Origin: Myxococcales bacterium
GTDB taxonomy: Bacteria > Myxococcota_A > UBA9042
Direction: 5' to 3'
DNA length: 64,000 bases
NCBI GenBank assembly: GCA_009692465.1
Contig: SHZD01000003.1
Span: 15,121 to 79,120 of the forward strand
A program made the translations under genes and the position numbers. The number at the start of each line of letters is the position of its first letter. The first letter of the stretch is position 1. The notes under the pieces are model-generated. The model ran no database searches, was not told the origin of the DNA, and worked only from the letters and a program-made list of their open reading frames with translations. Below are positions 9,839-60,058 of this stretch, one piece after another.

Positions 9839-11104
9839 ATGCGCCAGCCCACCCTGCTCATCGTGCCTGTTCTAATTTCGACCTTGTTCGCCTGTTCGCC
9901 GACTCAGAATTTCGGCAGCGTCGAGGGCCTGACCTGTTCGCGCTCTGGCGACCAGGTGTGCTCCAAAGAGCCGGGCAATCCGCGTGCCCGCTGCGGTTTT
10001 GACAACAATTGGACCATCCTCGAGAAGTGCAACGAGTTGCCGTGTGTGGTCGTCACCTTGTCCGGCGGCCTGCACTCCACCAGTTGCGGCGGAACACCAT
10101 CGGAAATCCAGACCGACGTCGTCACAACCCGCCAACCTGACACGATCAGCACCAGCGACACCAGCGAGGATTCGAACCGCAGTTCCGACATCAAGCCTGA
10201 AGGCAAGGACGCGATTTCGGGCACTAGCGCCACCAATTGTGGCAGCTATGTGTGCTCGGCCAAGCAACTGTGTACGCTCGGCGGCGCCTGCGAGGACAAT
10301 GCCTGCGCCAGCCCTTGCGGCCATGGCGAGCGCTGTAGCCTAGGTGTGTGTTTGTCTTACTGTTCGGGCACCTGTGCCAGCACCGAATACTGCCCACCCG
10401 ATCCGTTGGGCGACCAGTGCCAAAAACTCAACTGCACGCCGCCCATGGATCTAGGTGCCGCCTTTGTCGCGGTCGACCTGCAAGCGCAAGCCACAGCCGA
10501 CTCGCAGGCTTGCGCCCACTTGGCTGGGGCGACCTTGACCTTGAACAACGCGCTGCAAGCCGTGGGCCTTGGCGGCGACGGGCTTGCTGGCGGCATCGCG
10601 CTCGGCGCCGACACGCTAACGATTGCCACGTTACCGGTCCAAGGCAGCGCGGTGCTGTTGGCCAAGAAGGCCAACTCCAAGCCGTGCGCCGCTACTGGCG
10701 TGTGCGGGGTGGTGCTGAGCAAGGCCGACAACTTGAATCCTGCCGGCGCCGCCGCGCAACCGTGCAAGCCGCGTTATGCCGTGAACAAGTCGGACCGGTT
10801 TGAGGTGCTGCCACTGCCACTGCGCTTGGGCACAATCCGAGTGCCGTTGTTCGTGCGCAACGCGGCTGTAATGGTCGCTGCCGACAGCAAGAGTGCCGAA
10901 TTGTGCGGGCACGTGGCCAAAGCCGACATCGATGTCGCGCTGTCCGGCTTGTCCAAGGCCAGCGGGACGGCGTTTCAGTTGCTGCAAAAGCTAGTGACCA
11001 GCGGCCCGGATGTCGATAGCAATGGCGATGGCACCAAAGATGTGTGGGCAGTGCGGTTTGTCGTGCAGTTGGCCCCGGCTGTACTGAATAAATGGGCGCC
11101 GTGA
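9839..11104 (+). CDS. Cys-rich lipoprotein, function unknown
   Basis: Signal peptide with lipobox LFAC. Cys-rich N-terminal half. 421 aa. Its stop overlaps the next start (ATGGGCGCCGTGA). Confidence 0.6.
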   Translation: MRQPTLLIVPVLISTLFACSPTQNFGSVEGLTCSRSGDQVCSKEPGNPRARCGFDNNWTILEKCNELPCVVVTLSGGLHSTSCGGTPSEIQTDVVTTRQPDTISTSDTSEDSNRSSDIKPEGKDAISGTSATNCGSYVCSAKQLCTLGGACEDNACASPCGHGERCSLGVCLSYCSGTCASTEYCPPDPLGDQCQKLNCTPPMDLGAAFVAVDLQAQATADSQACAHLAGATLTLNNALQAVGLGGDGLAGGIALGADTLTIATLPVQGSAVLLAKKANSKPCAATGVCGVVLSKADNLNPAGAAAQPCKPRYAVNKSDRFEVLPLPLRLGTIRVPLFVRNAAVMVAADSKSAELCGHVAKADIDVALSGLSKASGTAFQLLQKLVTSGPDVDSNGDGTKDVWAVRFVVQLAPAVLNKWAP

Positions 11105-12126
11105 CGCCAGTTCTGCCGGCCGTACCCCCGACCATTTTCGATGCCAGCGGGGCCATTGCCGATGGCGTTTACCGCGGAACGATCGCCGACGCCAACTTGA
11201 AAGCGAGCCGGTGGCCGCTGAGCTGGCGGCAAAAAGAGTGGCACTACTTGTCAGCCGTGACCGATCGCCACTTGGTCGCGGTCGCCGTAGTGCAACTGGG
11301 CTACCTCGCCAATAGTTTTGCTTATGTCGTCGAACTTACCGGCCCCAGTGACCACCAGCCTTGGCAGTTCGAAGGGTTATCGCCCTTGGGCACAGCGGTG
11401 CGCTTTGGTCAGGGCCCGGCGCGCGGGGTGACCAGTTGGCGCAGTTCGGGCGCAGCCATTGATTTGCGGACTGACGACGACGGCTACACCGCGCGGATTG
11501 ACTTGCCGGTGGGCCGGGGCACTGAGACAAAGCGACTGTGTGCACGGCTTGAGTGTAAGCGCGGCGAGGCATTGACGCTGGTGCACACGTTGCCCACCGG
11601 CCGACCGGCGTGCACCGAAAAGGTGGCCGGGCTGCCCGCGAGTTTGGACATGCTGCTGGGCGAGCACGACATCGGCGGGGCGGCGCTGGCGAGCAGCGAC
11701 TGGACGCGCTCAGTGGCCATGCGGCAAACGGTGTGGAAGTGGGCTTCGCTCAGTGGCACCTTGCCCGATGGTCGGCACCTCGGCCTCAACTTGTCGGCCC
11801 AGGTGTACGACGACAGCCACGGCCAGTCCCGCGAAAATGCGCTGTGGATCGACGGCAAGGTCCACGCGCTTGCTGGCGGGGTGCTGTTCAGCGTGCCGCA
11901 GGCCGCGGATCGCCAGCCGTGGCTGCTGTCGAGTCAGCAAGGCGACGCGGTGCTGCTGCGTTTTGAGCCGCTGGGGGCGCGCCGGCAGGACATCGACTAC
12001 TGGCTGGTGGTCAGTCGGTTTGTCCAGCCCTACGGCCGATTTTATGGGCACTTGCGCGTCGATGGGCAGACTTTAGCCATCGACGGCATGGTCGGCGTGG
12101 TCGAGGAACACTTGGCGAAGTGGTGA
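11092..12126 (+). CDS. hypothetical protein, possibly DUF2804-like, translationally coupled to the upstream lipoprotein
   Basis: 344-aa ORF with coding-type GC3 bias and a 13-bp overlap with the upstream gene. The family assignment is from memory only. Confidence 0.45.
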   Translation: MGAVTPVLPAVPPTIFDASGAIADGVYRGTIADANLKASRWPLSWRQKEWHYLSAVTDRHLVAVAVVQLGYLANSFAYVVELTGPSDHQPWQFEGLSPLGTAVRFGQGPARGVTSWRSSGAAIDLRTDDDGYTARIDLPVGRGTETKRLCARLECKRGEALTLVHTLPTGRPACTEKVAGLPASLDMLLGEHDIGGAALASSDWTRSVAMRQTVWKWASLSGTLPDGRHLGLNLSAQVYDDSHGQSRENALWIDGKVHALAGGVLFSVPQAADRQPWLLSSQQGDAVLLRFEPLGARRQDIDYWLVVSRFVQPYGRFYGHLRVDGQTLAIDGMVGVVEEHLAKW

Positions 12127-12185: not shown

Positions 12186-12514
12186 AGAATTCGCTGTAAT
12201 CACAAGATGTTGTTTAATGGGTGCCACCTGATCAACTCTTGGGCCAAGCCGTAAGTGAGCGAAGGTCGGCGGTCCGAGTCGTCGGTGAGCCCCTACTGCC
12301 TTCCGGTCATGGTCAACTCGAGCATTCGCTGTAATCACAAGATGTTGTTCAATGGGTGCCACCTGATCAACTCTTGGGCCAAGCCGTAAGCGAGCAAACA
12401 ACCGCGGTCCGAGTCGTCGGATCGCCCGCGCTGCCTTCGGGTTGTGGTCAGGCCGCGGACAGCCGGACATTCGCTGTAATCACAAGATGTTGTTCAATGG
12501 GTGCCACCTGATCA
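12186..12514 (+). repeat. Tandem array of ~140-bp units (2 full plus 1 partial), each carrying a Family A motif (ATGTTGTTYAATGGGTGCCACCTGATCA at 12197, 12342, 12487)
   Basis: Units 12186-12325 and 12326-12465 are about 95% identical, and a third truncated unit follows. The array lies 190 bp upstream of clpB. Confidence 0.85.
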
Positions 12515-24998: not shown

Positions 24999-26921
24999 CT
25001 AGATTGGCCCCTTGCCGCACGAACCGCCCGGCTTGCCGGTCAAACAGCCCGCCAACCCGCTGCACGTAATCCCGCCAAAGCACATAGGATCTGGCTTAGG
25101 ACTGAGATTGGCCAACAAGCAACTCATAGGATCGCCGGCCGGTCCACCGCCGCCGCCGCCGGACTGTTTGCAACAAGTCGTCGGCAGGCCGGGCAATGGC
25201 AGCGGCGATTGGCAGTCTTTGCTTTGCGGGTCCTTGCTACAGTCACAGTTGGCGATCGTCGGCACTAGGGCTTTGAGTAGGTCGCACGCCTTGTCGTACT
25301 CCCAGCCATTGCCGCCGCCGCTGCTGCTGCCGCCGCCGGTGCCACACGTACACTGCATGGCATTGGCGGCCGGTGGTCCGCCGCCGCTGGGCAAGCCGGG
25401 AGGAAGGCCGCCGCCGCCGAACAGGTCCGACGCCAACTCGCAATTGGAGCCGACCGCCGCGTTGCAAAACGCCACGATATTGTCGCACTTGCCGGCGGTG
25501 TCAAAGCACAAGCCAGTCTTGGTGTCGCATTGCAGGCTAAAGGTGTTGTTGGGATCGTTTTTGCAGTCTCCATCGGCCTTGCAGGTGCCGTTCTTGGGCC
25601 CGATGCCGCCGGTGCTGCCACTCGAACCGGCGCAGGTATACGACTTGGGCGAGCAGGTGCCCTTGCTTTTCTTGGCGCAGTCATCGTCGATGGTGCATTC
25701 CACGCAACTCCAGGTGCCGTTTTGCTCGACGCAGCCGGGGTAATCGCCGCCGCACACTGAGCATTCGTTGCTCGACGACGACTTCTCGCAGATGTTGCTT
25801 TGCAAGTTGCACTTGGGGCCGCCGGTGCTGCCGGTGCAATGGGTGTCGTTGGTGCACTCGACGCACTCGCCGGTGTCTTTCTTCTTGATCTTGTTGGCCG
25901 GTTTGTTGGCGGGCGGGCAAGTGGCGGCCGTCACGCAGGTGTAGCTGTTCAAGTTACAGGTGCCGTTGTTGGGGCAATCGGCATTCTTGCTGCATTCTTG
26001 GCAGACCCCGGCAATGCACTTGCCCTTGCAACTGGCGCAGGCGCTGGTGCAGTTGGGCCCGTAGCAGCACTTGGTGGCGGCAAACGCACAGGCCTTGGTG
26101 GCTTCGCTGACGTACGACACGCAAGTCGAATTATCGGGGCAGGCTTGGCCGCCGCTGCAGTCGGGCGAGCACACCTTTTCGCTGCCGAATTTGACGCAGC
26201 GCAGGCCGTTGTCGCAATCCTTGTCCTGCAGGCACGATTCGCACGTCTTCTTGCTGGCCAAGCACGCCGGTGGATTAGTCTTGAAGTTGCACTTTTCGCC
26301 GTTGGGGCAGCCGGTGGTGGCGCAGCCTTTGCAATCGTAGCTGTTGAGCACGCAGTACTTTTGGTCGCCGGCCGACGCTTTGTCGCAGATGTAGCCGGGG
26401 GTGCAATCGGCGACCGACGCGCATTTCTTGGCGCAAAAGGTGCCGCTGAGCAAGTTGACGCACGAAAAATCGGCGCTGCACTCGTTGCCGGTCGGGGTAC
26501 ACACCTTGCATGAGTTGTCGGGCCCGCTTGTGCTGCCGGTGTCGGCTTTGACCGCGGTGTCGTTGACCGTCGCCGCGTCCAAGTTGGTGCCGTTGTCAGT
26601 CGCCGCAACGCCATCCGCGCCAACCGTCCCGGTATCGCCACCATCGGCGTTCGAGCCGGCGTCGCCGCCGCTGCCGTCCTTGGTGGTGCCGGCAAATTTG
26701 GCCACGCATTGCTTCTTGACGGTGTCGCAGGTAAAACCCAGCTCGCAATCGCCTTGGGTTACGCAGCTTTGCGCGCCGGCTGCTGTGCCACCGGTGCCGC
26801 TGGGCGTGTCGCTAGCACTGCATGCGGACAGGGCCGATGCCGCGAAAACAGCCAAGCTGAGCGCCAAGAACTGGCGGTCCGGCGAACAATTGGTCCAAAG
26901 GGCGCGTAGCGACGAGATCAT
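24999..26921 (-). CDS. Cys/Gly/Thr/Lys-rich secreted lipoprotein with repeated C..D.DC modules
   Basis: Start chosen at MISSLRALW, with lipobox LSAC. About 14% Cys with a regular spacing. No catalytic motif recognised. Confidence 0.6.
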   Translation of the reverse strand: MISSLRALWTNCSPDRQFLALSLAVFAASALSACSASDTPSGTGGTAAGAQSCVTQGDCELGFTCDTVKKQCVAKFAGTTKDGSGGDAGSNADGGDTGTVGADGVAATDNGTNLDAATVNDTAVKADTGSTSGPDNSCKVCTPTGNECSADFSCVNLLSGTFCAKKCASVADCTPGYICDKASAGDQKYCVLNSYDCKGCATTGCPNGEKCNFKTNPPACLASKKTCESCLQDKDCDNGLRCVKFGSEKVCSPDCSGGQACPDNSTCVSYVSEATKACAFAATKCCYGPNCTSACASCKGKCIAGVCQECSKNADCPNNGTCNLNSYTCVTAATCPPANKPANKIKKKDTGECVECTNDTHCTGSTGGPKCNLQSNICEKSSSSNECSVCGGDYPGCVEQNGTWSCVECTIDDDCAKKSKGTCSPKSYTCAGSSGSTGGIGPKNGTCKADGDCKNDPNNTFSLQCDTKTGLCFDTAGKCDNIVAFCNAAVGSNCELASDLFGGGGLPPGLPSGGGPPAANAMQCTCGTGGGSSSGGGNGWEYDKACDLLKALVPTIANCDCSKDPQSKDCQSPLPLPGLPTTCCKQSGGGGGGPAGDPMSCLLANLSPKPDPMCFGGITCSGLAGCLTGKPGGSCGKGPI

Positions 26922-27069
26922 GGCACACTCCAAGGTCAACGCCCCCAAAAGGCGCCCCAGTACTGTAAGCAATCTAGGGCAATACCCGCAACTGCACAAT
27001 TGCGCACTGGGGTCAGGTGTTCCATTGCGCCTGTTGGTCGCTGAACGCAGGTGCGCTACGGTAGGCGCG

Positions 27070-28161
27070 ATGTCGGCGCCAGATGCCATTGTTGCGGCCA
27101 ATTGCTTTGCAGTCTTGCGCGGTGCCGTTGCGAACGTTCGCACTTGGCTCGATCGCCATCAGCCCGCTGGGGTGATCGCGGTGCGCGGGGTGACGCTGGC
27201 GCACTGGGGGGCGCACTGCGGGGCGCATGAATGCGCCGATGGGCGCTCTGTCGGCTGTTTCGACGGCGTGCTGTTGAACGCCGATGTGATTCGAGCCGGC
27301 CTCGTCGAGCGCGGTCACTCGGCCCACCACTGGACCCATGCAGCGCTGGCGATCGAAACGGTGGCGGCCCACGGCCCCAACGGCGTTGGCCTGTTGCGCT
27401 GGCACGGCGCGCTGGCGGTGCTGCATCGTGCGCAGGCGGCGGTGCTGGTGGCGCGCGATCTGGTCGGGGTGGGCTGGCTGGGCTGGACCGAACTGGACGA
27501 CGGTGCCGAGCTGGTGTGTAGCGATCCGCGCCGCGATGGGCCGACGGTGACCGCGGTGCCACCGGGGGCGATAGCCGTGGTGGACGCCAGCGTAACGACT
27601 CAGCCTAAATTCACGATCCTGCCGCACAATCAGGCTTTTTTGCGACAAATTCCGGACCAAATCCGATCGATGGACGCCCAGCAGGCGGCGTCCCATGTCG
27701 CCGAGCTGTTGCAGCACAGCCTAGTGGCCCATGGACAGGCGTTTGGCGACATCGACACCAGCGCGGTGGCTGACCATCGATGGCTGACCCAGTATGCCGG
27801 CGAGTGGCTCAGTGCTGCGCGCTCACCAGCGCCGCCACCTGCGGTATGGACGCCCGTCGGTCTGCACGACACCACAGGTGCGCAAGATGCTAAGATTTGC
27901 AAACGCCAGCCGAATTTGCGCGATGATGGTCCGTGGGAGCCGCTGGTAGGCACCTGCCCAAGTGATCGGCGCGAACGCTTGTGGCGCCACCAGATCATGC
28001 CCGACGGTGTACTGCGTCAGGCCCGGGTACAGGCGCTGCAGACGGGAGCGGCACTGTGCGCCCCGCATCTGGATCCGGCGCTGCTGGCACTGCTAGGTGC
28101 CCTTGAGCCCTCCATTCGGCCACCGCTGTTGGGTGTGCCTGCGCCTGCGGTTGACAGCTAG
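27070..28161 (+). CDS. hypothetical protein
   Basis: 364-aa ORF with strong GC3 bias. I truncated the 26401 ORF to the first Met outside the overlap with the convergent gene. No recognisable domain. Confidence 0.35.
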   Translation: MSAPDAIVAANCFAVLRGAVANVRTWLDRHQPAGVIAVRGVTLAHWGAHCGAHECADGRSVGCFDGVLLNADVIRAGLVERGHSAHHWTHAALAIETVAAHGPNGVGLLRWHGALAVLHRAQAAVLVARDLVGVGWLGWTELDDGAELVCSDPRRDGPTVTAVPPGAIAVVDASVTTQPKFTILPHNQAFLRQIPDQIRSMDAQQAASHVAELLQHSLVAHGQAFGDIDTSAVADHRWLTQYAGEWLSAARSPAPPPAVWTPVGLHDTTGAQDAKICKRQPNLRDDGPWEPLVGTCPSDRRERLWRHQIMPDGVLRQARVQALQTGAALCAPHLDPALLALLGALEPSIRPPLLGVPAPAVDS

Positions 28162-28242
28162 ACCGCGCTGGTATCGTATGCGCAGCGGTTTGCGGCACCC
28201 GACGCAAGCTAAGTACGCCAAACCGCTCTTGCGACTGCCTGC

Positions 28243-28445
28243 CTAAGGGCCGGTGCAAAATCAGGTCGATTTTGCACTTTGGCCCACTGCTTGCTTGGTT
28301 GGCCCACTGCTTGCTTGGTTGGCCCACTGCTTGCTTGGTTGGCCCACTGCTTGCTTGGTTGGCCCGCTAACTCGCGGCTTTGCAAGCCGCCTGCACGCCC
28401 CGTTCCTATCGCGGATCGATCGAGTAATTCTTACACAGGCCCTAA
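28243..28445 (+). mobile_element. MITE Family B copy 2, with an internal 4x 20-bp tandem expansion (GGCCCACTGCTTGCTTGGTT, 28281-28360)
   Basis: Same TIRs and internal palindromes as the other copies. Ends 35 bp before the ATG of the downstream gene. Confidence 0.75.
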
Positions 28446-28480
28446 TTCGTGCCCGTCGCCTGCCCGCTTGAGGACCGCAC

Positions 28481-30719
28481 TATGTCCCATCCCGCCGATT
28501 GGCCCGCCGCCGGTGCCATCGACCTCGGCATTCACGACTTGCCACATGCGTCATCGTCCACCGAATGGTGGTACGTCAACGGCCATTTCACCACGGCAAC
28601 CGAGCGCAAACTCAGCATTTTCGCGGCGTTTTTTCGAGTTATCAAGGGGCGAGACCCGGTCACCGGTGAATTGCTGTACGCCCACTCGGTGACGTGGGCG
28701 TTGAGCGACCCGGCTGGTGGCCACTATTGGCACGAATCGCGGGTCGATAAGGACGCGCCGGCCATGGGCATCGCCCGCATCGATCGCGGTGAAGGCGTTC
28801 GCGACGCGCGCTTGCGCCGGGCGATGAAAGAAGTGCTGGTCAAGGGTAAAGTGCCGTATCCAGACCAGATTTTTGGCGGCGATGTCTACGTGGACAAGCG
28901 CCAATTGGATCTGGACTTCGATGGCCTGCGCTTTTGGAAGGACGACGCAGGAGCCTACCACCTGCATTTGCGCAACAACCACGTCGCGGTCGGCGCGGAC
29001 TTGGTGTTGGTGCCGCGCAAACCGGCGGTGCGCCACGGCCAAGACGGTGTAGTGAAAGGTGTTTCAGGCGAGGACATGTTCTACTACTTTTTGCCGCGCT
29101 GCGATCTGGCAGGCGAGGTGCTGCTGCCCGGCGGAGTCGAAGCGCTCAGCCAAGGCAGCGGTTGGTACGACCACGAGTTCGGCCTGCACGAAGGCAAGAC
29201 CACCAGTATGGGCGACCGCAAAAACGGTCAAGAAATTGGTTGGAATTGGCTGGGCATTCAGCTTGACGACGGCCGCGAACTGTCCGCGTATCGGATGGTC
29301 GACGAACACACGGGTGAATCGGTGGGACAGTTGGCAGTGCTGGTCGATAGCGACGGCAATCGCCAAGCGTGGCCAGACTTTACCCTGATCGGCGACCAAG
29401 TGTGGACCAGCACCCGTACCTTTGCCGACTATCCGACGCGCTGGCGCGTGCATGTGCCGCAGGCGGGCATCGACATTGTCGCCACCGCCACGTTGAACGA
29501 TCAGGAATTCATCACCGTCATCAGTAAGCCTGCGTTTTGGGAAGGTCGGTGCGCCGCCCAAGGGACGATCGACGGCGCCGCCGTGACGGGTTTGGCCTAC
29601 TTGGAGCACAGCGGGCAGTTGACGATTGCCGATCTCGACGGCTTTTTTTCGGCGGTTGGCCGCCAAGTACTCAAAAGCGTGGACAAACTGGCCCCTCACG
29701 AGCCTAGTTGGGAGCAGGTGCGCGACCTAGTGGCCAGTCCGCAGCGGCCGCAGTACATGCAGGGCGTGGATGTCGACCAGTTTACCCGCACCATGATCAA
29801 GCCGGTGCGCGAAATCGTCGATCGCGGCGGCAAGTCGTGGCGGTCGTACGCGGCGTTGGCGTGTTGCGATATTGTCGGCGGCGATTCGCGGTTGTATGTG
29901 CAGTGGTTGGCGATGCCGGAGCTGATGCACGTCGGCTCGCTGATCGTCGACGATGTGCAGGACAAATCGACTATTCGGCGCGGCGGGCCGACCGCCCATC
30001 TGGTATACGGCGAGGCGCTGGCAATTAATGCGGGCACTGCGTGTTACTTCATGGGCCAAAAGCTGTTGACTGGGCGGCACATGTCAGCCGCGAACAAATT
30101 GCGCTTGTATGACCTGTACTTTGAGAGTTTGCGTGCGGGCCATGCCGGTCAGGCGCTCGACTTGGACGGTCTGGACGCCCAAATGCCGGCGGTGGTGCAG
30201 AGCGGCGGCGGTGACTGGCTGGAGGAGCGCGTGTTGGCCGTGCATCGACTTAAAACCGCAGTGCCCGCAGCGAGTTTAGCGCGAATGGGCGCAGTAGTCG
30301 GCGGCGGCACCGAGGCCCAGATCGAGGGCGTCGGATTGTTTTTCGAGTCGGTCGGCTTGGCCTTTCAGATTATCGATGATGTGCTCAATCTGCGTGGTTT
30401 TAAAGGCGATCTCAAGGCCCGCGGCGAAGACATTGCCCACGGCAAAGTGACCTTGCCGGTGGCAAAAGCGATGGCCCGGCTGGAGCAAAGCGACCGCGCT
30501 TGGTTATGGCAGTGCGTGGCGCAAAAAAGTGATGACCAAAGCCAGATCGACGCCGTCATCGCCAAACTCGAAGCCTGCGGTGCGATTGACGCCTGTGCGC
30601 AGCAAGCGCGCGATTTGGTAGAAAGTGCGTGGCAGACCCTCGATCCACTGGTGGAGGATTCGCTGCCCAAGGTCATGCTGCGGGCGTTTGGTTGGTATGT
30701 GCTCGAGCGCCATTATTGA
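28481..30719 (+). CDS. fusion protein: N-terminal AttH/CrtC-like (hydroxyneurosporene synthase / lipocalin-like hydratase) domain plus C-terminal polyprenyl diphosphate synthase (GGPP synthase-like)
   Basis: Start at the ATG with a GAGGA Shine-Dalgarno 7 nt upstream. The N-terminal ~400 aa carry the EWWYVNGHF block typical of the AttH/CrtC family. The C-terminal ~330 aa carry FARM LIVDDVQD and a second motif FQIIDDVLN (DDxxN rather than DDxxD). Confidence 0.6.
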
Positions 30720-34669: not shown

Positions 34670-34697
34670 ATGTTGTTCAATGGGTGCATCCTGATCA
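34670..34697 (+). repeat. Family A motif, copy 8, abutting MITE-B copy 3
   Basis: ATGTTGTTCAATGGGTGCATCCTGATCA followed directly by the MITE-B TIR. Confidence 0.65.
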
Positions 34698-37075
34698 GGG
34701 CCCGTTCAAAATCAAGTCGATTTTGCACCCCGGCCCACCGCTTGCTTGGTGGGTCGCTAACTCGCGGCTTTGCAAGCCGACTCGACGCTCCGTTCCAATC
34801 GTGGATCGACCAAGTTATTTTTTCACGAGCCCTTAATCGCCCGATTTCGGCTCGCATCGCAGTCGTTCTGGCGGCGCTAGTTGCGGCGACGGCTTGCAAA
34901 GCCCCGGTGCAGTCGGAAGACCCGCTGACGACGGTGACAGACGCGGATGCGGGCTTTGCCGGTACATTGGACGTCGCTGCCAGCGCCGATGGCGATGTGG
35001 GCAAGGCAGTTGCCGATGCAGCCAATGTCCAAGGCGAAGGCTTGAGCGACACTAGCGCCGGGCCGACCGACGCGACTGTGGCCGATGTCAGCGATGCAGA
35101 CGCCGCGAGCGCGCTCGACGATTCCACTGACTCCCAAACCCTGGACGCGGCAAGCACCGCCGATGCCAATGCCGAACTGGACGTCGATAGCGGCCAGCCC
35201 AGTGACAGTGGCGCCACGACGGCGTGCGACGACAGCGCCAAAGTGTGCCCGCAGGCCTTTGCGTATGCCGGCACCGGCAGCGAAACAGCGGTCGAAGTGC
35301 GCGGCAGCTGGAACGGCTGGAAGGCCGGCGGCGCGCTCACAGCCACGGGCACGACTTGGAACGGCACGGTCAAGCTGCCGCAATCCCAAATTTTTCAGTA
35401 TAAATTTCGAATAGTTCTGGCCGACGGCAAGGAGCTTTGGAAGCTCGACAGCGCCAATCCAATTAGCGCCGACGACGGATTTGGCGGCAAAAACTCGGTG
35501 GTCGGCCCCCTGCAATGCCCAAGCGACGGCATCTGCCCGCAACCGCAGACCTTGTGCGGCGCTCCGCTCAAAGCCAATGCCTTTGATTGGCGCGACGCGG
35601 TGTTGTACTTCGTGTTCGTCGATCGGTTCGTCAACGGCAATCCGGCCAATGACGGCAAGAATCCGGACAAGAATGTGCCCGCTATCGCCAATTGGCACGG
35701 CGGCGACTGGCTGGGGGTCAAGCAAAAAATCGACGACGGCTACTTTGGAGCGCTGGGCGTCAACGTCTTGTGGCTGACCGTACCCTTGGACAACACCGAC
35801 GCGGTTGAAATGGGTGATGAAGGCAAACCCTACACCGCCTACCACGGCTATTGGCCGCGGGATATCGACAAGCCAAACCCGCACTTTGGCAGCATGGCCG
35901 ATCTGAAGGCCCTTGTAGACGCCGCTCACGCCAAGGGCATCATGGTGATTCTGGACTACGCGATGAACCACTTGCACGCGTCGTCACCGACATTTTCTAA
36001 TCATCCCGAGTGGTTTCATCCACTCAAAGTCAACGGCCAATTCTGCACTTGCGGCAGCGGCGTGTGCCCGTGGGACGGACCCAGCGGGGTGTTTTGCTGG
36101 TTTCGCCAATATCTGCCCGACTTCGATTTTGACAACGCCGTCGCCCGCAAAGCATCGATCGACAACGTGATTTGGTGGATGGACCAGTCAGGTGCCGACG
36201 GGCTGCGCTTGGACGCGATCAAGCACGTTGAAGACATTTGGCTAACTGAGCTGCGCGCGCGCCTGAGCACCGAAGTCGAGCCCAAGCGCGGTCAACACAT
36301 CTGGCTGGTCGGCGAGACCTACACCGGCGATCAGGGCTTTATCAAGTCGTTTGTGGAGCCATGCACCAAGCTCGACGGTCAGTTCGACTTTCCGCTGCGC
36401 GCGGTGTTGGACAATGTCGTGCTGCTGCGCCAAGGCAAGATGCAGAATTTGCACAAGTTTGTCACCGCCAACGACAGTTTTTACGGACCGACCGCGCTGA
36501 TGTCGACCTTCGCTGGCAATCACGACCTGCCACGCATTATCCACTACGCTCAAGACAAACCGCTGTATAGCAACGTGTGGGATGTGGGCAAAGACAATGC
36601 GTTTTTCAACACCCCGACGCTTGTTGCCGAAAACAGCGCCTATCAACGGGTGGCTGTGGCGATGACGGTGTTGTACGGGTCACCCGGAGTGCCGCTGGTG
36701 TACTACGGCGACGAGATTGGGCTGCCGGGGGCAGGCGATCCGGACAATCGGCGACCCATGCAATTCAAGGACTTAAGCGATAATCAGAAGTGGTTGCTGG
36801 AGCAGCATCAAAAGCTGGGTCAAGCCCGCAAGGCCCACAGTGCGCTGCGGCGCGGGACGCGAACGACGCTGGCGACCACCGACGATGGCTGGCTGTGGGC
36901 GATGACCGACGCCAAGCAAACCGTGTGGGTGGCGGTCAACCGCGGGGATAATCCAGTAACTTTACAAGGGTTGCCTGCCGGTGAGGCCCTCAAAGACGTG
37001 CTGAGTGGCGAGACGCTGACGGGGCCCAATTGCGCCGTGCCGCCGCGAACTGGGCGAATTCTGGTTAAACAGTAG
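34670..37075 (+). CDS. glycoside hydrolase family 13 (alpha-amylase-like) lipoprotein with an acidic linker and an N-terminal carbohydrate-binding-type beta domain
   Basis: GH13 regions I-IV (DAVLYFVFVDRF, GLRLDAIKH, EtyT..., NHD). Lipobox-like VAATAC after the MITE-derived N-terminus. The true start is uncertain. Confidence 0.75.
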   Translation: MLFNGCILIRARSKSSRFCTPAHRLLGGSLTRGFASRLDAPFQSWIDQVIFSRALNRPISARIAVVLAALVAATACKAPVQSEDPLTTVTDADAGFAGTLDVAASADGDVGKAVADAANVQGEGLSDTSAGPTDATVADVSDADAASALDDSTDSQTLDAASTADANAELDVDSGQPSDSGATTACDDSAKVCPQAFAYAGTGSETAVEVRGSWNGWKAGGALTATGTTWNGTVKLPQSQIFQYKFRIVLADGKELWKLDSANPISADDGFGGKNSVVGPLQCPSDGICPQPQTLCGAPLKANAFDWRDAVLYFVFVDRFVNGNPANDGKNPDKNVPAIANWHGGDWLGVKQKIDDGYFGALGVNVLWLTVPLDNTDAVEMGDEGKPYTAYHGYWPRDIDKPNPHFGSMADLKALVDAAHAKGIMVILDYAMNHLHASSPTFSNHPEWFHPLKVNGQFCTCGSGVCPWDGPSGVFCWFRQYLPDFDFDNAVARKASIDNVIWWMDQSGADGLRLDAIKHVEDIWLTELRARLSTEVEPKRGQHIWLVGETYTGDQGFIKSFVEPCTKLDGQFDFPLRAVLDNVVLLRQGKMQNLHKFVTANDSFYGPTALMSTFAGNHDLPRIIHYAQDKPLYSNVWDVGKDNAFFNTPTLVAENSAYQRVAVAMTVLYGSPGVPLVYYGDEIGLPGAGDPDNRRPMQFKDLSDNQKWLLEQHQKLGQARKAHSALRRGTRTTLATTDDGWLWAMTDAKQTVWVAVNRGDNPVTLQGLPAGEALKDVLSGETLTGPNCAVPPRTGRILVKQ
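34695..34835 (+). mobile_element. MITE Family B copy 3
   Basis: TIR and internal palindromes conserved. Lies in frame at the 5' end of the GH13 ORF. Confidence 0.75.
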
Positions 37076-37143: not shown

Positions 37144-38313
37144 TTAGCGCAGTGCCCGCCGACCTAGGTAGTCAGCCACTTCGGCCAGCGCTGCCATCAC
37201 TCGCACCCCTTGAGGCGGCGGCCAGCTAAACAGGCGTGCACGGTCGGCGGCAGTCCACTGCATCGCGTAAAATCGCGCAATCAAACCGGAATCGAGCCGA
37301 TGAAAGCGTCGCAAGGCGTGGTGGCGCTGATCCGGCGGCGTGTGCTCAAACAGCAACCGGTTGAGCAAGCAGGCAAATTGTTGCTTATGGGCATGGGCGG
37401 CCTGCAGTTGCGGCCACTGCTGGCGCGCCTGGGTCGGCGAGCGCTCGGCCAACCACTGCGCGACCCGCACCCCGATCGGCAACGTGTAGCCAGTCGCCGC
37501 GTTCAGCCAGCCGCCGGCCATGCCGATGCGCAACACCCCAACGGGCTGAACGACAGCCGCAACCTGACAGGGCATCGGCAGCACGCCCTGTTGCTCGCCC
37601 ACCAGCTCGGCATCGGGGTGACCGTTATCGCGCAACCAGTCGGTGCAGCCTTGGCGCAAGTCGCTGGCGTCGAGCTGTGCTTGGTCGGAGAAAACCGTAG
37701 TTTCCACAAGAAGTTCATTGGCTTGCCACGGAAGCACATACGCAAAACGCAAAGCGCCGCGCTGCGGTTGGCGCGCATCCATCAGAATCGGTTGGTCCAG
37801 CTGGTGGGCGCGCTGGGTGCGGACCCGCAATCCAACGAATTTCTGCCAGCCAATCGTACCATGCAAAGACAGTGCGCCGGCGCCGCGACCGTCGAGGACC
37901 AAATCGGCGGCGATCTCCTCACCGCTGGTCAGTTCAATGTGGTCGGTGGCGACGGCCTGCACGCGGGTGGCAACGCGCAGTTCGCAGCCCGAGCGCTGCA
38001 GAACTTGCTGGACGACGTCATGTAAGCGATCGCCGGTCGTCGCCGCGTAAGGCAAGGCGAGCCTTTGGGATTCGCCAGAGAAATGCAGGTCAAAGCCCGG
38101 CCAGCGCCGCACAACCAGGGGTTCGAACCACAGCGCGGCAGCAGGCGGCACATCCAAAGCGTGACAGGCCCAAGTGTGGTTGCCACCCAGCGTATCTTGC
38201 TGTTCGATAAGGCAAATGCGCGCGGTCGGCCGCCGATGCAGAATCGCAAGCGCGCACAGACCTGCGTGCAATCCGCCGCCGGCAATGGCGACGTCAAATC
38301 TCACGCGGTCCAA
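37144..38313 (-). CDS. crtY: lycopene beta-cyclase CrtY
   Basis: GGGLHAGL...GGNHTW motif, internal DGRG, and C-terminal LIARFYA block as in CrtY. 389 aa. Confidence 0.8.
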   Translation of the reverse strand: MDRVRFDVAIAGGGLHAGLCALAILHRRPTARICLIEQQDTLGGNHTWACHALDVPPAAALWFEPLVVRRWPGFDLHFSGESQRLALPYAATTGDRLHDVVQQVLQRSGCELRVATRVQAVATDHIELTSGEEIAADLVLDGRGAGALSLHGTIGWQKFVGLRVRTQRAHQLDQPILMDARQPQRGALRFAYVLPWQANELLVETTVFSDQAQLDASDLRQGCTDWLRDNGHPDAELVGEQQGVLPMPCQVAAVVQPVGVLRIGMAGGWLNAATGYTLPIGVRVAQWLAERSPTQARQQWPQLQAAHAHKQQFACLLNRLLFEHTPPDQRHHALRRFHRLDSGLIARFYAMQWTAADRARLFSWPPPQGVRVMAALAEVADYLGRRALR

Positions 38314-39770
38314 TCAGCCAGATAGCCTCGGCGCGGTACCGACCACAGCGGCTCACCACGGACATTATAGTGCGATAGCAGACAGTTGGCGGCCAAGAAT
38401 CCTGACGCCACCGCCCGTTCCATCAAGCCCGACGGCAACGGAATCCACGTATAGTCACCTGCCAAGGCCAAAGTCGGGTCGGGCGAATGCACCCGTGGGC
38501 GCAAATGGGCGGTACCGGCGGCAAATGCTGGTGAATCTTGGGATAATGCAAAGGTGCTGTGCACGACTTTGGCGGCTTTGGTCTCTGGGTAAAAGTGATG
38601 CAACCGCTCGGTCATTTGTGCACGCGCGTCTTGGGCAGTCAAATGCGCTGGCATGGCGTAAGCATGGATTTCGACTTCGGAACCGCCGGTGGCCGCCGCC
38701 CATTGCGCACTGGTATCCGCGACGTGGTTGTACACCGCAATCGAGTCCAAAATGCCGCCGCCAGCGATTGCCGCAAACACGGGCCGATCGGCTCGCACTG
38801 GCCGATCCAACCAAAACCGTTGAACAGCAAAGGGACTAGTCGCCCGTTGACTGGCCAAGGCCGCACGCCACGGCGCATCGCCGATGTCTCCCGACGCCGC
38901 CACAATGTCGCGCACTGCAGTCACCGTCGCGGCCAGCACGACCGCGTCACACGCCAGCGGCTCCGTCGGGGCCCCTTGACCCACATCCGCCGGTCGGGTG
39001 TGCACTAGCCAACCTTGACCGTCCTTTTGGAGAGCAACCGCGTCGGTACCCAGCCGCAGTTAGGTAGCCATAGTGTGCAAATAGCGGGTCAGCGGCTGCC
39101 AAATCGCGGTATGCAGCGGTTGATCGAGGGCGTCAAAGGTCAGGCCTTCGGGATTGTGGGTGAAATAGAAGTGAAAGTACTGCAGCATCTCCGCCGCCGA
39201 CATCTCGGTCTGTGGATTGAAGAAACTGTGTGCAAACACGTCAAAAATCATCGCCCGCGCCTGTTTGGGAAAGGCCACGGCGTCCAAAAACTGGGCGGCC
39301 GTGGTGTGGTCCCAGCGCTCAAAGGTCTTGGTTTGATCGTAGCTCAACATCTCAAAAGTATGGCGAAAACCGACTTTGAGCATATCGTGCCAGCGCAAAA
39401 GTGGGCTGTGCTTGACCATCGCCAGCACCTTGGCCGGCGGAAACCGCGCAATCTCGGCAAAAAGCTCAACTTGGCCGTCCGGCGCTAGAACCGGGTAGTC
39501 GGCCATCGGCACCAGCATCGACAGCCGCGGATCGAAGCGCTTGAACAACTCGCGCAGATTGTAGTATTGCCGAAAAAAGGCGTGAAAACCGCGCTCTAAC
39601 TGCACCGGCGTGCCATCGGGCAAGGTGTCCGACCAGCCACGGGCGCGGCCGCCGAGTTCGTTTTCATGCTCAACCACGGTCACAATCGCGCCGCGCTCGG
39701 CCAAAATGGTCGCCGCAGCCATGCCCGCCAACCCGCCGCCGATAACGACGACGCGCTTGGGCACGGTCAA
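38301..39770 (-). pseudogene. CrtI/CrtD-family FAD-dependent carotenoid desaturase-like gene, split by an in-frame TAA at 39060-39062
   Basis: N-terminal piece (39060-39770) has Rossmann VVVIGGGLAGMAAA. C-terminal piece (38301-39005) is in the same frame. The two are separated by a single stop codon, and together they total ~490 aa as expected for the family. Confidence 0.55.
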
Positions 39771-43422: not shown

Positions 43423-43574
43423 CTAAGAGCCCGTGCAAGAATTACTCGATCGATCCGCGACAGGAACGGAGCGTCGAGTCGGCTTGCAAAGCCGCGAGTT
43501 AGCGACCCACCAAACAAGCAGTGGGCCCAAGTGCAAAATCGGTTTGATTTTGCACGGGCCCTAACTCCGCGAAG
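43423..43574 (-). mobile_element. MITE Family B copy 4
   Basis: TIR TTAGGGCCCGTGCAA at both ends. Located ~265 bp upstream of the SurA-like lipoprotein gene, in the same relative orientation as the other copies. Confidence 0.75.
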
Positions 43575-46148: not shown

Positions 46149-47552
46149 TTGGCGTTGACGGCAGGTAAGCAGCGGCCTAAGTTGGCGCCGCCAAAGAACG
46201 AAAGAACGAGCGCCGCGGCCATGACCGAACCTGACAGCAAGACCACGCCTGCGGGCATCAGTTCGGACACTGAGCGCAGTCGCCGCCACACCCGAACCTA
46301 TAGCGACGGTTTTGTTGCGCTTGCCGCGCAAGATGGCGCAAGCGACCCCGCGCCGGTCGTTGCGGTTGCCGGCGAATCCGCCCATCGCCGCCAACGGCCC
46401 ACCTCGCAAACAGTGCTGGAGTTGCCGCAAGATCGCGCAGCGTTGGCCCTGCCGCAGATTCCCGACGAAGAGCTCATTGCCGTGGATGATCTGGCCACCG
46501 GCTCGCAGACCGCTGGCGGCAGTCAGTTCGTCGCCAGCGAAGTAGTTGATGCAAGTGAAGTTCTTGGAGCCAGCGAAGTGGCCGTGCTCGACGAAGGGGT
46601 CGTTGTCGGCGCAACGCACAGCGGCGGTTCAGCGCCCCGACCGAGCGTCAGTATTGCGTTGCATAAGCCCTTCGGTCAGCTTCGAAGCGACGCGACGCGC
46701 ACCGACACCCGCCAGACGCAGACCGCGCACACGGCGGTGGGGCCGGTGCCAGTGGCGCAACGGTCGACAGCCCGGCAGCCCGCGATCCGCAAGGCAACAG
46801 GCTGGTTTGGCCCAGTGGCGTTGCTGGCTGCGGCTCTGGCGGGCAGCGCGGCGGCGTGGCGGTTGGTGGGCCAGACGCCGGCAAGTGAGTCTAGTGGCGG
46901 CGCGCTTGAGGTTGCCGACGCGCCGGCAGTAGTCCCTGTCGCCAGTGCAGCGGTCGCGCACAGCGACGAATCCCAGGCGGCAGGCGCGGTCGCTGCTCCA
47001 ATCCGCGCTGGTGAGGCGGCCGAGGTTGTCGCGGCGGCAAGGCCGCAGCTGGGTCCGGTAGTCGCAGCGGTAGCGGACCCAGTAGCGATCCCAGCCCGAG
47101 TAGCGATCCCAGCCCGAGTAGCGATCCCAGCTGGGGTCGGTGCGAGTTCCGTCAGCGCTCAATCGCGGGTGGCGAATGAGCCTGCGCAACCGGCACTGCA
47201 ACCGGCACTGCAACCGGCACTGCAACCGGCACTGCAACCGGCACTGCAACCGGCACTGCAACCGGCACTGCCGTCGGCACCACCAGTGGCCAGCAAACCG
47301 CCACGGGCACCGGAATTGGCCGACTTGTGCCAGCGCGGGGCGTGGGTGGTCCAAGGCACCGCGGCCGATGCCGAGGCACCGTACTTGGCGTTGCGCGACC
47401 AGCCGCGAAATGACTCAAAATTACTAGCGAAACTTTCGGATGGCACCCGCGTCGGCTACGGTAGCCGCCAAGGTCGCTGGATTTGGGCACAGGTGTGCGC
47501 GACGGGTCAAGCGGGTTGGCTCAACCAGAAATGGTTGGCACCAGCGCGCTGA
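46149..47552 (+). CDS. membrane-anchored low-complexity protein with a C-terminal bacterial SH3 (SH3b) domain and an in-frame 12-bp x8 repeat (PALQ)
   Basis: One TM helix, (PALQ)n at 47190-47285, and a C-terminal SH3b-like block. Confidence 0.45.
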   Translation: MALTAGKQRPKLAPPKNERTSAAAMTEPDSKTTPAGISSDTERSRRHTRTYSDGFVALAAQDGASDPAPVVAVAGESAHRRQRPTSQTVLELPQDRAALALPQIPDEELIAVDDLATGSQTAGGSQFVASEVVDASEVLGASEVAVLDEGVVVGATHSGGSAPRPSVSIALHKPFGQLRSDATRTDTRQTQTAHTAVGPVPVAQRSTARQPAIRKATGWFGPVALLAAALAGSAAAWRLVGQTPASESSGGALEVADAPAVVPVASAAVAHSDESQAAGAVAAPIRAGEAAEVVAAARPQLGPVVAAVADPVAIPARVAIPARVAIPAGVGASSVSAQSRVANEPAQPALQPALQPALQPALQPALQPALQPALPSAPPVASKPPRAPELADLCQRGAWVVQGTAADAEAPYLALRDQPRNDSKLLAKLSDGTRVGYGSRQGRWIWAQVCATGQAGWLNQKWLAPAR

Positions 47553-52130: not shown

Positions 52131-52185
52131 TTGCAGTCCTTAAACACTACAGCGCGAGCCACCCGAACCTAGGCGGCACTGGGCT

Positions 52186-52333
52186 CGGCGGCACTGGGCT
52201 CGGCGGCAGTGGCCTAGGCGGCAGTAGTCTAGGCGGCAGTAGCCTAGGCGGCAGTAGTCTAGGCGGCAGTAGTCTAGGCGGCAGTAGTCTAGGCGGCAGT
52301 AGTCTAGGCGGCAGTAGTCTAGGCGGCAGTGGT
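52186..52333. repeat. 15-bp tandem repeat x ~9 (CTAGGCGGCAGTAGT) at the 3' end of grxD
   Basis: The first unit encodes the C-terminal TTAA plus stop of grxD on the minus strand. Every further unit repeats ThrThrAlaAla-stop in frame. Confidence 0.85.
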
Positions 52334-52651
52334 CTCGGCGACCGCCGCCTTGAGCATCGGCTCCAATTGGCCGTTTTGGTACAGGTCAACGGTGATGTCA
52401 CAGCCGCCGACCAATTCGCCCTTGACGTACAACTGCGGCACGGTCGGCCACTGACCGTACTGCTTGACGCCCTCGCGAATGTCCGGATCTTGCAGGACAT
52501 TGACCGTTGAAAACGCCACGCCGCAGGCCTTGAGGGCCTCGACGGTTCGCGCCGAAAATCCGCACATGGGCATGGCGGGCGTGCCTTTCATGAACAGCAC
52601 GACCGGCTTTGAGTGAACGAGTTCGTCGATTTCTTTTTGAACATCACGCAT
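52319..52651 (-). CDS. grxD: monothiol glutaredoxin Grx4/GrxD (CGFS type)
   Basis: CGFS active site (PMCGFS) and the WPTVPQLYV..GG.D motif. Start chosen at MRDVQKEID. Confidence 0.85.
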   Translation of the reverse strand: MRDVQKEIDELVHSKPVVLFMKGTPAMPMCGFSARTVEALKACGVAFSTVNVLQDPDIREGVKQYGQWPTVPQLYVKGELVGGCDITVDLYQNGQLEPMLKAAVAETTAA

Positions 52652-57560: not shown

Positions 57561-57635
57561 AGCGAGCGACGCTGGCTCGAGGGGTGGCGGCATTTTGCCT
57601 CGCGGCGGTAGGGAGTTTTGGCGGGCGCCTGACAA

Positions 57636-59974: not shown

Positions 59975-60058
59975 TTTCACTGGCCATTCAGTAATTTCAC
60001 TGGCTATTCAGTAATTTCACTGGCCATTCAGTAATTTCACTGGCCATTCAGTAATTTC
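59953..60058. repeat. 21-bp tandem repeat x5 (CATTCAGTAATTTCACTGGCC) that includes the sdhC stop codon
   Basis: The first unit overlaps ..GVIQ plus stop of sdhC. Each unit carries TAA. Confidence 0.85.

Follow-up and report, generated by a model that had tools for sequence, protein, structure and literature searches.

The isoprenoid-acting members of the AttH/CrtC fold family characterized so far all add water to a double bond of an isoprene unit, giving a tertiary alcohol. They comprise CrtC, kievitone hydratase and, from archaea, the hydroxy-GDGT synthase Hgs, an AttH-like protein showing that hydration by AttH-type enzymes extends to isoprenoid lipid chains other than carotenoids (bioRxiv 10.1101/2025.10.20.683597). 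In CrtC of Rubrivivax gelatinosus (RgCrtC), D268 of the Y266-L-D268 motif is the proton donor (PMC4717167, PMC12402844), and W283 and W285 stabilize the carbocation (PMC12402844). The His239-x-Trp241 pair of CrtC is also needed for activity, and CrtC accepts non-carotenoid terpenes, geranylgeraniol among them. For the AttH protein NE1406 (2ich), a role in lipid metabolism has been proposed (PMC2954199). Fusions of a prenyl diphosphate synthase to a modifying enzyme are known from the fungal chimeras fusicoccadiene synthase and PvCPS (6v0k, 9q3i), where the modifying domain is N-terminal to a GGPP-synthase-type domain and the substrate is presumably made beside its consumer. In haloarchaea, the lycopene elongase/1,2-hydratase LyeJ/CrtEb couples prenyl transfer and hydration of an isoprenoid end in a single protein; it belongs to the UbiA-type membrane prenyltransferases, has a single active site and is not homologous to either domain considered here. 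A full-text literature search found no paper on a fusion of AttH/CrtC to a prenyl diphosphate synthase; one seeming match, PMC6007079, proved irrelevant.

Such a fusion is encoded in the window, the whole 64-kb stretch of DNA from a Myxococcales bacterium that was analyzed (Table 1). Profile searches bore out a sequence-only reading of the locus, in which one ORF joins an AttH/CrtC-like domain to a trans-prenyl diphosphate synthase: PF07143 and PF00348 were both matched, with PF17186 as a third domain, all far above their cut-offs, and the blocks quoted in that reading are all present (EWWYVNGHF, aa 28 to 36; LIVDDVQD, aa 487 to 494; FQIIDDVLN, aa 628 to 636). Its start and length needed correction, in that the ATG is at 28482, 1 nt later than the 28481 claimed (the frame from 28481 contains 19 stops), and the translation has 745 residues instead of 746. 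The longest open frame extends from a GTG at 28449 to 30719; the N termini of homologues agree with the ATG as the start, with M1, P4, D6, W7 and P8 conserved. No signal peptide was found in the fusion protein (N terminus MSHPADWP). Immediately upstream, the element described as a "MITE-B copy" proved to be a real dispersed repeat. In a blastn search of the intergenic region against the window it has three further matches of 80 to 90% identity, at 9424-9565 (-), 34697-34839 (+) and 43426-43562 (-), and the copy beside the fusion gene bears a perfect 20-nt tandem array of 4.3 units (28279-28365).

Table 1. Features of the fusion gene and its surroundings (window coordinates)
Feature	Position	Strand	Basis or remark
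Dispersed ~140-nt repeat copy, 5' intergenic, adjoining the fusion gene	28241..28449	.	blastn against the window; repeat finders
Shine-Dalgarno-like GAGGA	28470..28474	+	Read from the sequence; 7 nt before ATG 28482
AttH/CrtC-like + prenyl diphosphate synthase fusion gene	28482..30719, stop codon included	+	ORF list, Pfam, homologues, orthologues
First beta-barrel, AttH/CrtC-like, aa 27-234	28560..29183	+	PF07143, E=3.9e-18, 67.1 bits vs cut-off 22.5
EWWY block, aa 28-31	28563..28574	+	E28, W29, W30, Y31 invariant; shared with canonical AttH
~40-aa helical Arg-rich insertion including RLRRAM, aa 92-139	28755..28898	+	phmmer, MAFFT, structure model, invariant residues
WYDHEF motif with D230, presumed proton donor	29163..29180	+	W228, Y229, D230, H231, E232 invariant
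Second beta-barrel, Lipocalin_9, aa 251-377	29232..29612	+	PF17186, E=1.1e-24, 87.5 bits
WNW (W254, W256)	29241..29249	+	Both Trp invariant; counterpart of RgCrtC W283/W285
All-helical trans-prenyl diphosphate synthase domain, aa 385-745	29634..30716	+	PF00348, PDB matches, structure model
GGKSWR, IPP-diphosphate-binding Lys/Arg motif	29826..29843	+	G449, G450, K451, W453, R454 invariant; aligned to GGKRLR of 3mzv
First Asp-rich motif DDVQD, aa 490-494, no insertion	29949..29963	+	D490, D491, D494 invariant
Second Asp-rich motif DDVLN (DDxxN), aa 632-636	30375..30389	+	D632, D633, N636 invariant in 32 members
Lycopene-cyclase-family (crtY-like) gene	37144-38313	-	6.4 kb from the fusion gene
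CrtD-like amine oxidase, split in two ORFs	39060-39770 and 38301-39005		Adjoins the lycopene-cyclase-family gene

The N-terminal half is a double barrel that has no match among the NCBIfam models and lies nearer to AttH than to the curated CrtC models. Its best structural match is the AttH protein 2ich (Foldseek E=1.9e-22, TM 0.84 normalized to the target), and phmmer of the fusion protein against 2ich gave E=7e-17. The predicted structure also matches kievitone hydratase 7a0t (Foldseek E=5e-16), and its neighbors include 25-phosphosteroid lyase 9g4c and the pericyclase Phm7. Motifs common to the fusion and the AttH-like proteins are H-x5-EWWY, W-x-D-x-E-[WF] and WxW. The EWWY block aligns with AttH of pAtC58 and is present in all 121 close members of the fusion family and in 56 of 72 distant ones. 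Unlike the fusion, canonical AttH proteins are of about 330 to 360 aa, carry a signal peptide, are encoded in operons with ABC/FtsX transporters (pAtC58, Caballeronia), and lack both the synthase domain and the helical insertion of the first barrel. This insertion, most of which (residues 97 to 139) is skipped in the phmmer alignment to 2ich, is modeled with helices at 92-101 and 109-120, and its residues G103, D108, R113, E117, P125, P127 and D128 are invariant. IDS-fused members from five lineages have it, and so does a single close relative that stands alone, P0244, which is apparently secreted and has no synthase. Kievitone hydratase shares the fold and turns a prenyl group into a tertiary alcohol by hydration; in contrast to the fusion, it is a secreted fungal glycoprotein without a synthase, acts on a prenylated isoflavonoid and is only 14 to 15% identical.

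As in CrtC of R. gelatinosus and Thiocapsa roseopersicina, the double barrel contains an aromatic-x-Asp proton-donor motif and then a WxW pair, and it would likewise be expected to add water to an isoprene double bond without any cofactor, giving a tertiary alcohol. D230 and W254/W256 were matched to RgCrtC through the motif given by published mutagenesis primers and through alignment with AttH proteins. WYDHEF is widely conserved in the fusion family, a few distant members having Glu at the D230 position, and WxW follows in 142 of the 145 members that have the Asp motif. Unlike CrtC, the fusion has no N-terminal membrane anchor, has Trp in place of Y266, and carries the helical insertion and the synthase domain. 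Moreover, the region of CrtC H239, located by spacing, is M199-F-Y-Y-F203 (MFYYFLP) in the fusion, with aromatic residues and no His. Since H239 has no evident counterpart in the family, the acid-activating network would be unlike that of CrtC; the invariant H22 or H231 might stand in for it. Judged by the conservation of D230 in WYDHEF, WxW and EWWY, the hydratase half looks active.

The helices of the synthase half start at residue 385 of the structure model, with essentially no linker after the barrel. PF00348 is matched from aa 438 to 695 (E=1.8e-47, 162.2 bits vs cut-off 27), covering profile positions 4 to 250 of 251, and sequence matches in the PDB are to deca-/octaprenyl and GGPP synthases, with PvCPS also among them. 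In NCBIfam, all 16 synthase models fall far below their equivalog cut-offs, the best being IdsA_Meth at 137.9 bits vs 468. Invariant residues are GGK451xxR454, H483, DDxxD 490-494, RR499-500, KT591-592, FQ628-629, DD632-633 and K645, and K451, R454, H483, R499, R500, K591, T592, F628, Q629 and K645 were aligned to 3mzv. With all chain-elongation and IPP-binding residues in place, the synthase half looks active; a pure terpene synthase would have no need of IPP-binding residues. The first Asp-rich motif, invariant in 32 members, occurs in 179 of the 191 family proteins. It is preceded at -5 and -4 by the small residues G485 and S486 (G-S in 174 of the 179), and small residues there argue against a short pocket of the FPP-synthase type. 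The structure model is poor around the first motif (residues 483 to 525, pLDDT <50).

The sequence-only reading had singled out DDxxN as a departure from the usual DDxxD and had raised a non-canonical terpenoid enzyme as one possibility. The motif is indeed there, but it is no mark of a non-canonical enzyme: human GGPP synthase has 188-DDYAN-192 as its second motif, a published DDxxN variant, DDxxN occurs in active GGPP synthases (PMC4106277, PMC7484799), and N and D are interchangeable in the fusion family. The motif ends in N in 118 of 121 close members, and distant representatives have N in 38 cases and D in 20. In alignments, N636 falls on the third Asp of FQIVDDLLD, the second motif in bacterial octa-/decaprenyl diphosphate synthases (DDLLD, 4jxn, 3mzv). 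DDxxN, the insertion-free DDxxD and the small residues at -4/-5 are shared with the type III GGPP synthases of human, yeast and other fungi, which are nonetheless no closer overall than bacterial/plant GGPP and long-chain synthases (55 to 59 vs 92 to 98 bits in the PDB search). Unlike the type III enzymes, the synthase studied here is bacterial, is fused and reaches none of the equivalog cut-offs in NCBIfam.

In principle, two separate genes could have been joined by a frameshift, by a sequencing error or by chimeric assembly, and a metagenomic relative, P0124, is indeed split in two ORFs. However, the first ORF of P0124 already holds the first synthase helices, so it is a broken fusion; it was considered and rejected as a representative of ancestral split genes. 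Nothing in the window supports an artefact. More than 120 full-length homologues from independent assemblies, at 56 to 97% identity, have the same uninterrupted architecture, which recurs in 379 species-level genomes, nearly all of them Myxococcota. Orthologues are collinear and gapless over 745 codons with an overall dN/dS of 0.11; the N half (0.16) and the C half (0.06) are both under purifying selection. On these comparative data an artefactual fusion is already refuted, and we assign it a negligible probability. Carriers include Myxococcota, Actinomycetota, Cyanobacteriota, Bacteroidota-like and archaeal-like contigs and at least one eukaryote-like contig. The protein cluster is annotated only as "polyprenyl synthetase family protein."

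We propose that the fusion protein is a cytoplasmic, self-contained enzyme that would make a prenyl diphosphate of at least C20 and, by hydrating one double bond in it, create a tertiary alcohol, a proposal that we give an even chance of being right. The C-terminal synthase would extend an allylic diphosphate by IPP units, with C20 as the probable minimum length. The N-terminal double barrel would then bind a trisubstituted double bond of the new chain, D230 would protonate it, and the cage of Trp and Tyr residues would stabilize the tertiary carbocation until water quenches it, leaving a tertiary alcohol on the prenyl chain. Channeling of the prenyl diphosphate into hydration, as the sequence-only reading suggested, is plausible and gains some indirect support from the larger fusions described below. 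The analysis establishes the domain identities, the conserved catalytic residues, the broad distribution of the fusion and the absence of a conserved gene cluster; what we infer is that both domains act on one molecule, which bond is hydrated, how long the chain becomes and what happens to the product. A covalent fusion is in itself no proof of consecutive action. Also counting against the proposal are the want of an evident H239 counterpart, Glu at the D230 position in a few distant members, the poor model around the first Asp-rich motif, and P0244, which carries the helical insertion but no synthase.

Larger fusions, from cyanobacterial and archaeal-looking relatives, carry additional domains. 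A sulfotransferase, a GT1 glycosyltransferase, AttH and the synthase are joined in a 1509-aa protein encoded on a Tolypothrix plasmid and in P0186 and P0196, and a glycosyltransferase, AttH and the synthase in P0203 and P0226. The domain order in these proteins is the reverse of the proposed pathway, in which the hydroxyl of such relatives would be glycosylated, the sugar sulfated and the lipid exported. ABC exporters adjoin the gene in three distant members, Tolypothrix (DevB/DevC type), Streptomyces canus and L086; no transporter adjoins the fusion gene in the window. That AttH-IDS fusions form an unrecognized, cross-domain class of one-polypeptide isoprenoid lipid synthases, whose barrel hydrates the nascent prenyl diphosphate, or cyclizes it after protonation, toward glycosylated, sulfated and exported lipids, is a possibility we put forward tentatively and regard as rather doubtful.

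At first inspection, the neighborhood invites a carotenoid explanation, in which the protein would be a CrtE-CrtC type fusion of non-consecutive enzymes, one half making GGPP for phytoene and the other later hydrating an acyclic carotenoid end at its 1,2 bond. The myxobacterial 1'-hydroxy carotenoid glycosides would be the model products. Fungi have fusions of non-consecutive carotenoid steps, the N half matches the CrtC Pfam family, and the GT1 fusions would suit carotenoid glycosides too. Of the crtY and CrtD-like pair reported 7 kb away, the cyclase-family gene stands, at 6.4 kb; the CrtD-like gene, within 6.4 to 9 kb of the fusion, is split in two ORFs. However, neither crtB nor crtI was found in the 64-kb window, and in 80 other fusion loci no homologue of the cyclase or the amine oxidase was present within 10 kb of the fusion. 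A Pfam census of the 150 distinct neighbor families showed no recurring carotenoid or terpenoid family; with no accessory terpenoid genes recurring nearby, the enzyme would need only universal precursors. The carotenoid-pathway connection suggested from the sequence alone was thus not sustained. The splitting of the CrtD-like gene, the closeness of the N half to AttH rather than to curated CrtC models, the want of an evident counterpart of H239 and the Tolypothrix megaprotein, plasmid-borne beside a DevBCA-type exporter without carotenoid genes, also count against the carotenoid explanation, and we consider it unlikely. A conserved gene cluster of another kind was rejected as well: when GC3-selected ORFs from the 80 loci were clustered, the most frequent neighbor occurred in no more than 26% of them. 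Two neighbors recur, a polytopic membrane protein of about 600 aa and a protein of about 200 to 240 aa directly downstream; neither has a Pfam, NCBIfam or PDB match, and neither is present in the window.

The same catalytic residues could serve a different outcome, with the barrel protonating the terminal double bond of the newly made prenyl diphosphate to start a class-II-like cyclization, with or without a water quench; the protein would then be the bacterial equivalent of the prenyltransferase-cyclase chimeras known from fungi. The reaction would begin as in CrtC, which its authors liken to squalene-hopene cyclase (PMC4717167); invariant aromatic residues are unusually frequent in the pocket, the fold supports other carbocation and pericyclic chemistry (9g4c and Phm7), and the synthase is C-terminal as in PvCPS. 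Against this, no AttH/CrtC family member is known to cyclize, the characterized isoprenoid-acting members being hydratases without exception. A free hydroxyl on the product, as implied by the glycosyltransferase and sulfotransferase of the larger fusions, suits both outcomes and is required only by hydration. The partner domain in the fungal chimeras is an alpha-helical class I/II terpene synthase, whereas the one here is all-beta and matches hydratases. Cyclization is in our view decidedly unlikely. Still less probable is a non-catalytic barrel, a lipocalin-like lipid-binding module that would pass the synthase product to the membrane or an exporter, with the hydroxyl coming from elsewhere. 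Its lipocalin-like fold, the lipid-metabolism role proposed for NE1406, the operons of canonical attH with ABC/FtsX-type transporters and the ABC exporters flanking three distant fusions would all fit a carrier, but the Asp/Trp/Tyr set that is catalytic in CrtC varies little or not at all across the family, which is hard to square with a passive role.

Both domains belong to textbook families; it is their covalent pairing, kept in hundreds of species across several phyla and domains, that has no described function. We see in the gene not a curiosity of carotenoid metabolism but a promising lead to a pathway, so far undescribed, for hydroxylated isoprenoid lipids. Terpene hydratases that act regioselectively and without cofactors are in demand for biocatalysis (PMC12402844). 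If the two halves act in sequence, the fusion would represent a new route, free of O2 and cofactors, to hydroxylated isoprenoid chains at the point of synthesis, and bacteria would have their own analogue, with a wholly different partner fold, of the prenyltransferase-cyclase chimeras found in fungi. The megafusions with glycosyltransferase and sulfotransferase domains, for their part, point to an undescribed class of isoprenoid glycolipids.

Closer inspection of the hydratase-synthase fusion gene places its start at an ATG at 28482. Its longest forward-strand frame opens with a GTG at 28449 and ends with the stop at 30719; the ATG has GAGGA 7 nt 5' of it, matches the aligned homologue N-termini (M1, P4, D6, W7 and P8 conserved) and gives a 745-aa product. 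The sequence-only reading had found the right ORF with a start one base off (28481, 746 aa), which puts 19 stops in the translation. All three motif blocks it quoted are present, EWWYVNGHF at residues 28 to 36, LIVDDVQD at 487 to 494 and FQIIDDVLN at 628 to 636, and Pfam supports both the AttH/CrtC (PF07143) and the trans-prenyl synthase (PF00348) assignments. In PDB sequence searches the N-terminal half resembles the putative AttH 2ich and the C-terminal half decaprenyl, octaprenyl and GGPP synthases. In the AlphaFold model (mean pLDDT 83.6, pTM 0.71; unreliable around residues 483 to 525), two beta-barrels lead straight into the helical synthase domain, whose helices start at residue 385.

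A search of a large protein database for this architecture, suggested along with the sequence-only reading, brought up over 120 full-length proteins in which all three Pfam domains recur, at 56 to 97% identity; such names as they have go no further than "polyprenyl synthetase family protein" or "GGPP synthase/predicted secreted hydrolase". Among GTDB contigs (one genome per species), 379 stretches encode a relative, nearly all labelled Myxococcota or Deltaproteobacteria MAGs, and the genomes carrying relatives are mostly MAGs. Orthologues at loci L001 and L002 align without gaps over 745 codons, and their dN/dS is 0.16 across the hydratase half but 0.06 across the synthase half. Together, these same-architecture proteins, gapless orthologues and dN/dS values rule out a frameshift or assembly artefact, a reading to which we give negligible weight. 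An exhaustive HMMER search with the N-terminal half alone gave 151 cluster representatives (50% identity level) at E<1e-30, mostly of 720 to 800 aa, so this barrel subfamily occurs predominantly as the fusion. MAG records L006, L010, L021, L022, L060 and L077, titled Klebsiella pneumoniae, Enterobacteriaceae or Enterobacterales, carry this Myxococcota-type gene (58 to 67% identity); the records are probably mislabelled.

By Foldseek, the barrel half matches AttH (2ich; E=1.9e-22, TM 0.84 normalised to target), kievitone hydratase (7a0t; E=5e-16), a 25-phosphosteroid lyase (9g4c; E=1e-9) and the pericyclase Phm7 (7e5v; E=2.7e-7). In R. gelatinosus CrtC, D268 is the proton donor, W110, W283 and W285 stabilise the carbocation, and H239, W241 and Y266 are essential (PMC4717167, PMC12402844). 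Our residue equivalences come from motifs in published primer sequences, H264-A-Y266-L-D268-S-N-E and R-H239-R-W241-G-P (PMC4717167), and from alignment with AttH proteins. The fusion has G-W228-Y-D230-H-E-F and then W254-N-W256, all invariant in a 32-member alignment, and distant members as well as canonical AttH proteins keep the WYDHEF-type and WxW motifs. Where spacing would put H239, the fusion family reads M-F-Y-Y-F, and no His is evident. Thus the catalytic Asp and Trp cage of CrtC are retained, whereas the acid-activating partner appears to differ; judged by these motifs, the N-terminal half is an AttH-type enzyme, not a CrtC in the strict sense. Unlike canonical AttH, fusions of all lineages examined, and one close stand-alone relative, carry a helical Arg-rich insertion of ~40 aa (residues 92 to 139, RLRRAM...PYPD). 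Canonical attH-type genes at L091 (5845-6912) and L092 (5920-7005) come immediately 3' of genes for ABC ATPases and FtsX-like permeases; in pAtC58 the gene also adjoins the blcR-attM lactonase locus, and the Caballeronia copy is named "carotenoid 1,2-hydratase" by NCBI, with carotenoid context absent.

The residues by which an elongating trans-prenyltransferase would be recognised are all kept in the synthase half. Conservation was judged in the alignment of 32 diverse fusion members, in every one of which GGK451xxR454, H483, D490, D491, D494, R499, R500, K591, T592, F628, Q629, D632, D633 and K645 are invariant. So is N636, which takes the place that the third Asp has in the FQIVDDLLD motif of long-chain synthases from bacteria. 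The suggestion that DDxxN departs from normal synthases did not hold: the second motif of human GGPP synthase is 188-DDYAN-192 (PMC4106277), DDxxN has been termed a canonical variant for GGPP synthases (PMC7484799), and the wider fusion family has DDxxN in 38 representatives and DDxxD in 20. We therefore conclude that Asn at this position is a neutral family trait. Almost the whole of the wider family has G-S at -5/-4 ahead of the first motif. By established chain-length rules, these small residues and the insertion-free first motif would argue against a short pocket of the FPP-synthase type and would fit a chain of at least C20. The domain scores under all curated NCBIfam equivalog cut-offs (best, IdsA, 138 bits against 468).

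Domains of the fusion protein (aa) and features of the window (nt)
Feature	Position	Strand	Remarks
CrtC PF07143	aa 27-234		Pfam E=3.9e-18
Lipocalin_9 PF17186	aa 251-377		Pfam E=1.1e-24
polyprenyl_synt PF00348	aa 438-695		Pfam E=1.8e-47
Giant ORF, 2118 aa	3261-9617	-	Dictyostelium-type CTDC Cys-rich repeats, InhA-like MAM domain
DUF2804 protein	11092-12126	+	E=1e-50; after unannotated 421-aa ORF
Cys-rich 714-aa protein	24999-27143	-	no Pfam match; upstream of fusion; common to 11 closely related loci only
GATase_7-like protein	about 27100-28161	+	directly upstream of fusion; common to 5 closely related loci only
Lycopene-cyclase-family gene	37144-38313	-	6.4 kb from fusion
CrtD/CrtI-like amine oxidase, split	38301-39005 and 39060-39770	-	adjoins lycopene-cyclase-family gene
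Dispersed repeat	28241-28449		tandem expansion at 28279-28365
Dispersed repeat	9424-9565	-
Dispersed repeat	34697-34839	+
Dispersed repeat	43426-43562	-
Tandem array	12189-12514		135 nt x 2.3
Tandem array	47186-47271		12 nt x 7.2
Tandem array	52169-52340		15 nt x 11.5
Tandem array	57635-57758		13 nt x 7.7
Tandem array	59965-60064		20 nt x 5
Tandem array	63004-63105		31 nt x 3.3

The window is ordinary chromosome, with genes for ClpB, ThiG, succinate and malate dehydrogenases, an aromatic amino acid lyase, glycosyltransferases, an amidase, an S8 peptidase and an alpha-amylase. The "MITE-B" copy reported 5' of the fusion is indeed there, one of four copies (80 to 90% identity) of a dispersed intergenic repeat of ~140 nt; it holds a perfect 20-nt tandem expansion, TTGGCCCACTGCTTGCTTGG, of 4.3 units. 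The many near-perfect short tandem arrays are mostly intergenic, something out of the ordinary in a segment of bacterial chromosome.

A rival reading is a fusion of the CrtE-CrtC type, acting in carotenoid synthesis; the sequence-only reading had placed a crtY and CrtD-like pair 7 kb away. The cyclase gene stands; the CrtD-like gene is not intact, being split into ORFs of 236 aa (N-terminal) and 234 aa (C-terminal) by either a frameshift/pseudogene or a sequencing error near 39005-39060. The 64-kb window contains no crtB or crtI. Across 80 other loci, with genes called by a GC3-based heuristic, the fusion neighbourhood is not conserved, and none has a homologue of the cyclase or the amine oxidase near the fusion. 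When the neighbours were tallied by Pfam (150 distinct families), none of the families that recurred was for terpenoids or carotenoids; only generic SAM methyltransferases did so (5 families). This comparative context speaks against the proposed pathway link and makes a carotenoid fusion unlikely. With its upstream genes common to few close loci, the fusion gene behaves as a stand-alone unit. Its commonest neighbours elsewhere are a polytopic membrane protein of ~600-650 aa (21/80 loci, e.g. L024 6713-8671) and a ~200-240-aa protein encoded immediately 3' of the fusion in the same orientation (in 18 loci; two distantly related clusters, typified by L011 12220-12933 and L003 2616-3260), both without a Pfam, NCBIfam or PDB match.

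We give about an even chance to a two-step enzyme, in which the synthase half would elongate to a prenyl diphosphate and the barrel, with D230 as proton donor, would then protonate a trisubstituted double bond and capture water, yielding a tertiary alcohol. What we observed directly is which domains are present and which residues are conserved; the coupling of the steps, regiochemistry, chain length and product fate are what we infer. That the barrel is instead a protonation-initiated cyclase seems rather improbable, and a passive lipid-binding module, weakened by the invariant catalytic constellation, slightly more so.

The strongest argument for hydration of the synthase's own product, an indirect one, comes from larger fusions. 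By tblastn of plasmids, we found the same fusion, of 747 aa, next to an ABC transporter on a linear plasmid of Streptomyces canus, and a 1509-aa Tolypothrix PCC 7712 plasmid protein (L082, 9655-14181) ordered sulfotransferase, GT1 glycosyltransferase, CrtC/Lipocalin_9 and polyprenyl synthase, its gene flanked by DevB/DevC/ATPase-type exporter genes and IS701 copies. There are two more sulfotransferase forms of ~1500 aa (P0186, P0196), glycosyltransferase forms (P0203, P0226) and a PX-domain form (P0168), the extra domains preceding the AttH-synthase pair. The P0203 contig (L084, GCA_964520075.1) has archaeal-type genes (PF01984, DUF7411, RPA-like OB folds), and the contig of a 749-aa member (L085, GCA_003719475.1) has genes of eukaryote type (mitochondrial carriers, Ser/Thr kinase, MBF1); one further relative is on a contig with T9SS-tail proteins, and one adjoins an ABC ATPase. 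The sulfotransferase-glycosyltransferase-AttH-synthase order reverses a pathway of chain formation, hydration, glycosylation of the new hydroxyl and sugar sulfation, which argues that the barrel hydroxylates what the synthase has made and that an exported amphiphilic lipid may be the final product.

Both domain families and DDxxN are already known, and databases show the architecture, though under generic names. In full-text searches of a literature with few subscription journals, we found no function described for this fusion. The fusion is no categorical surprise; it is a worthwhile enzymology lead of broad phylogenetic reach.
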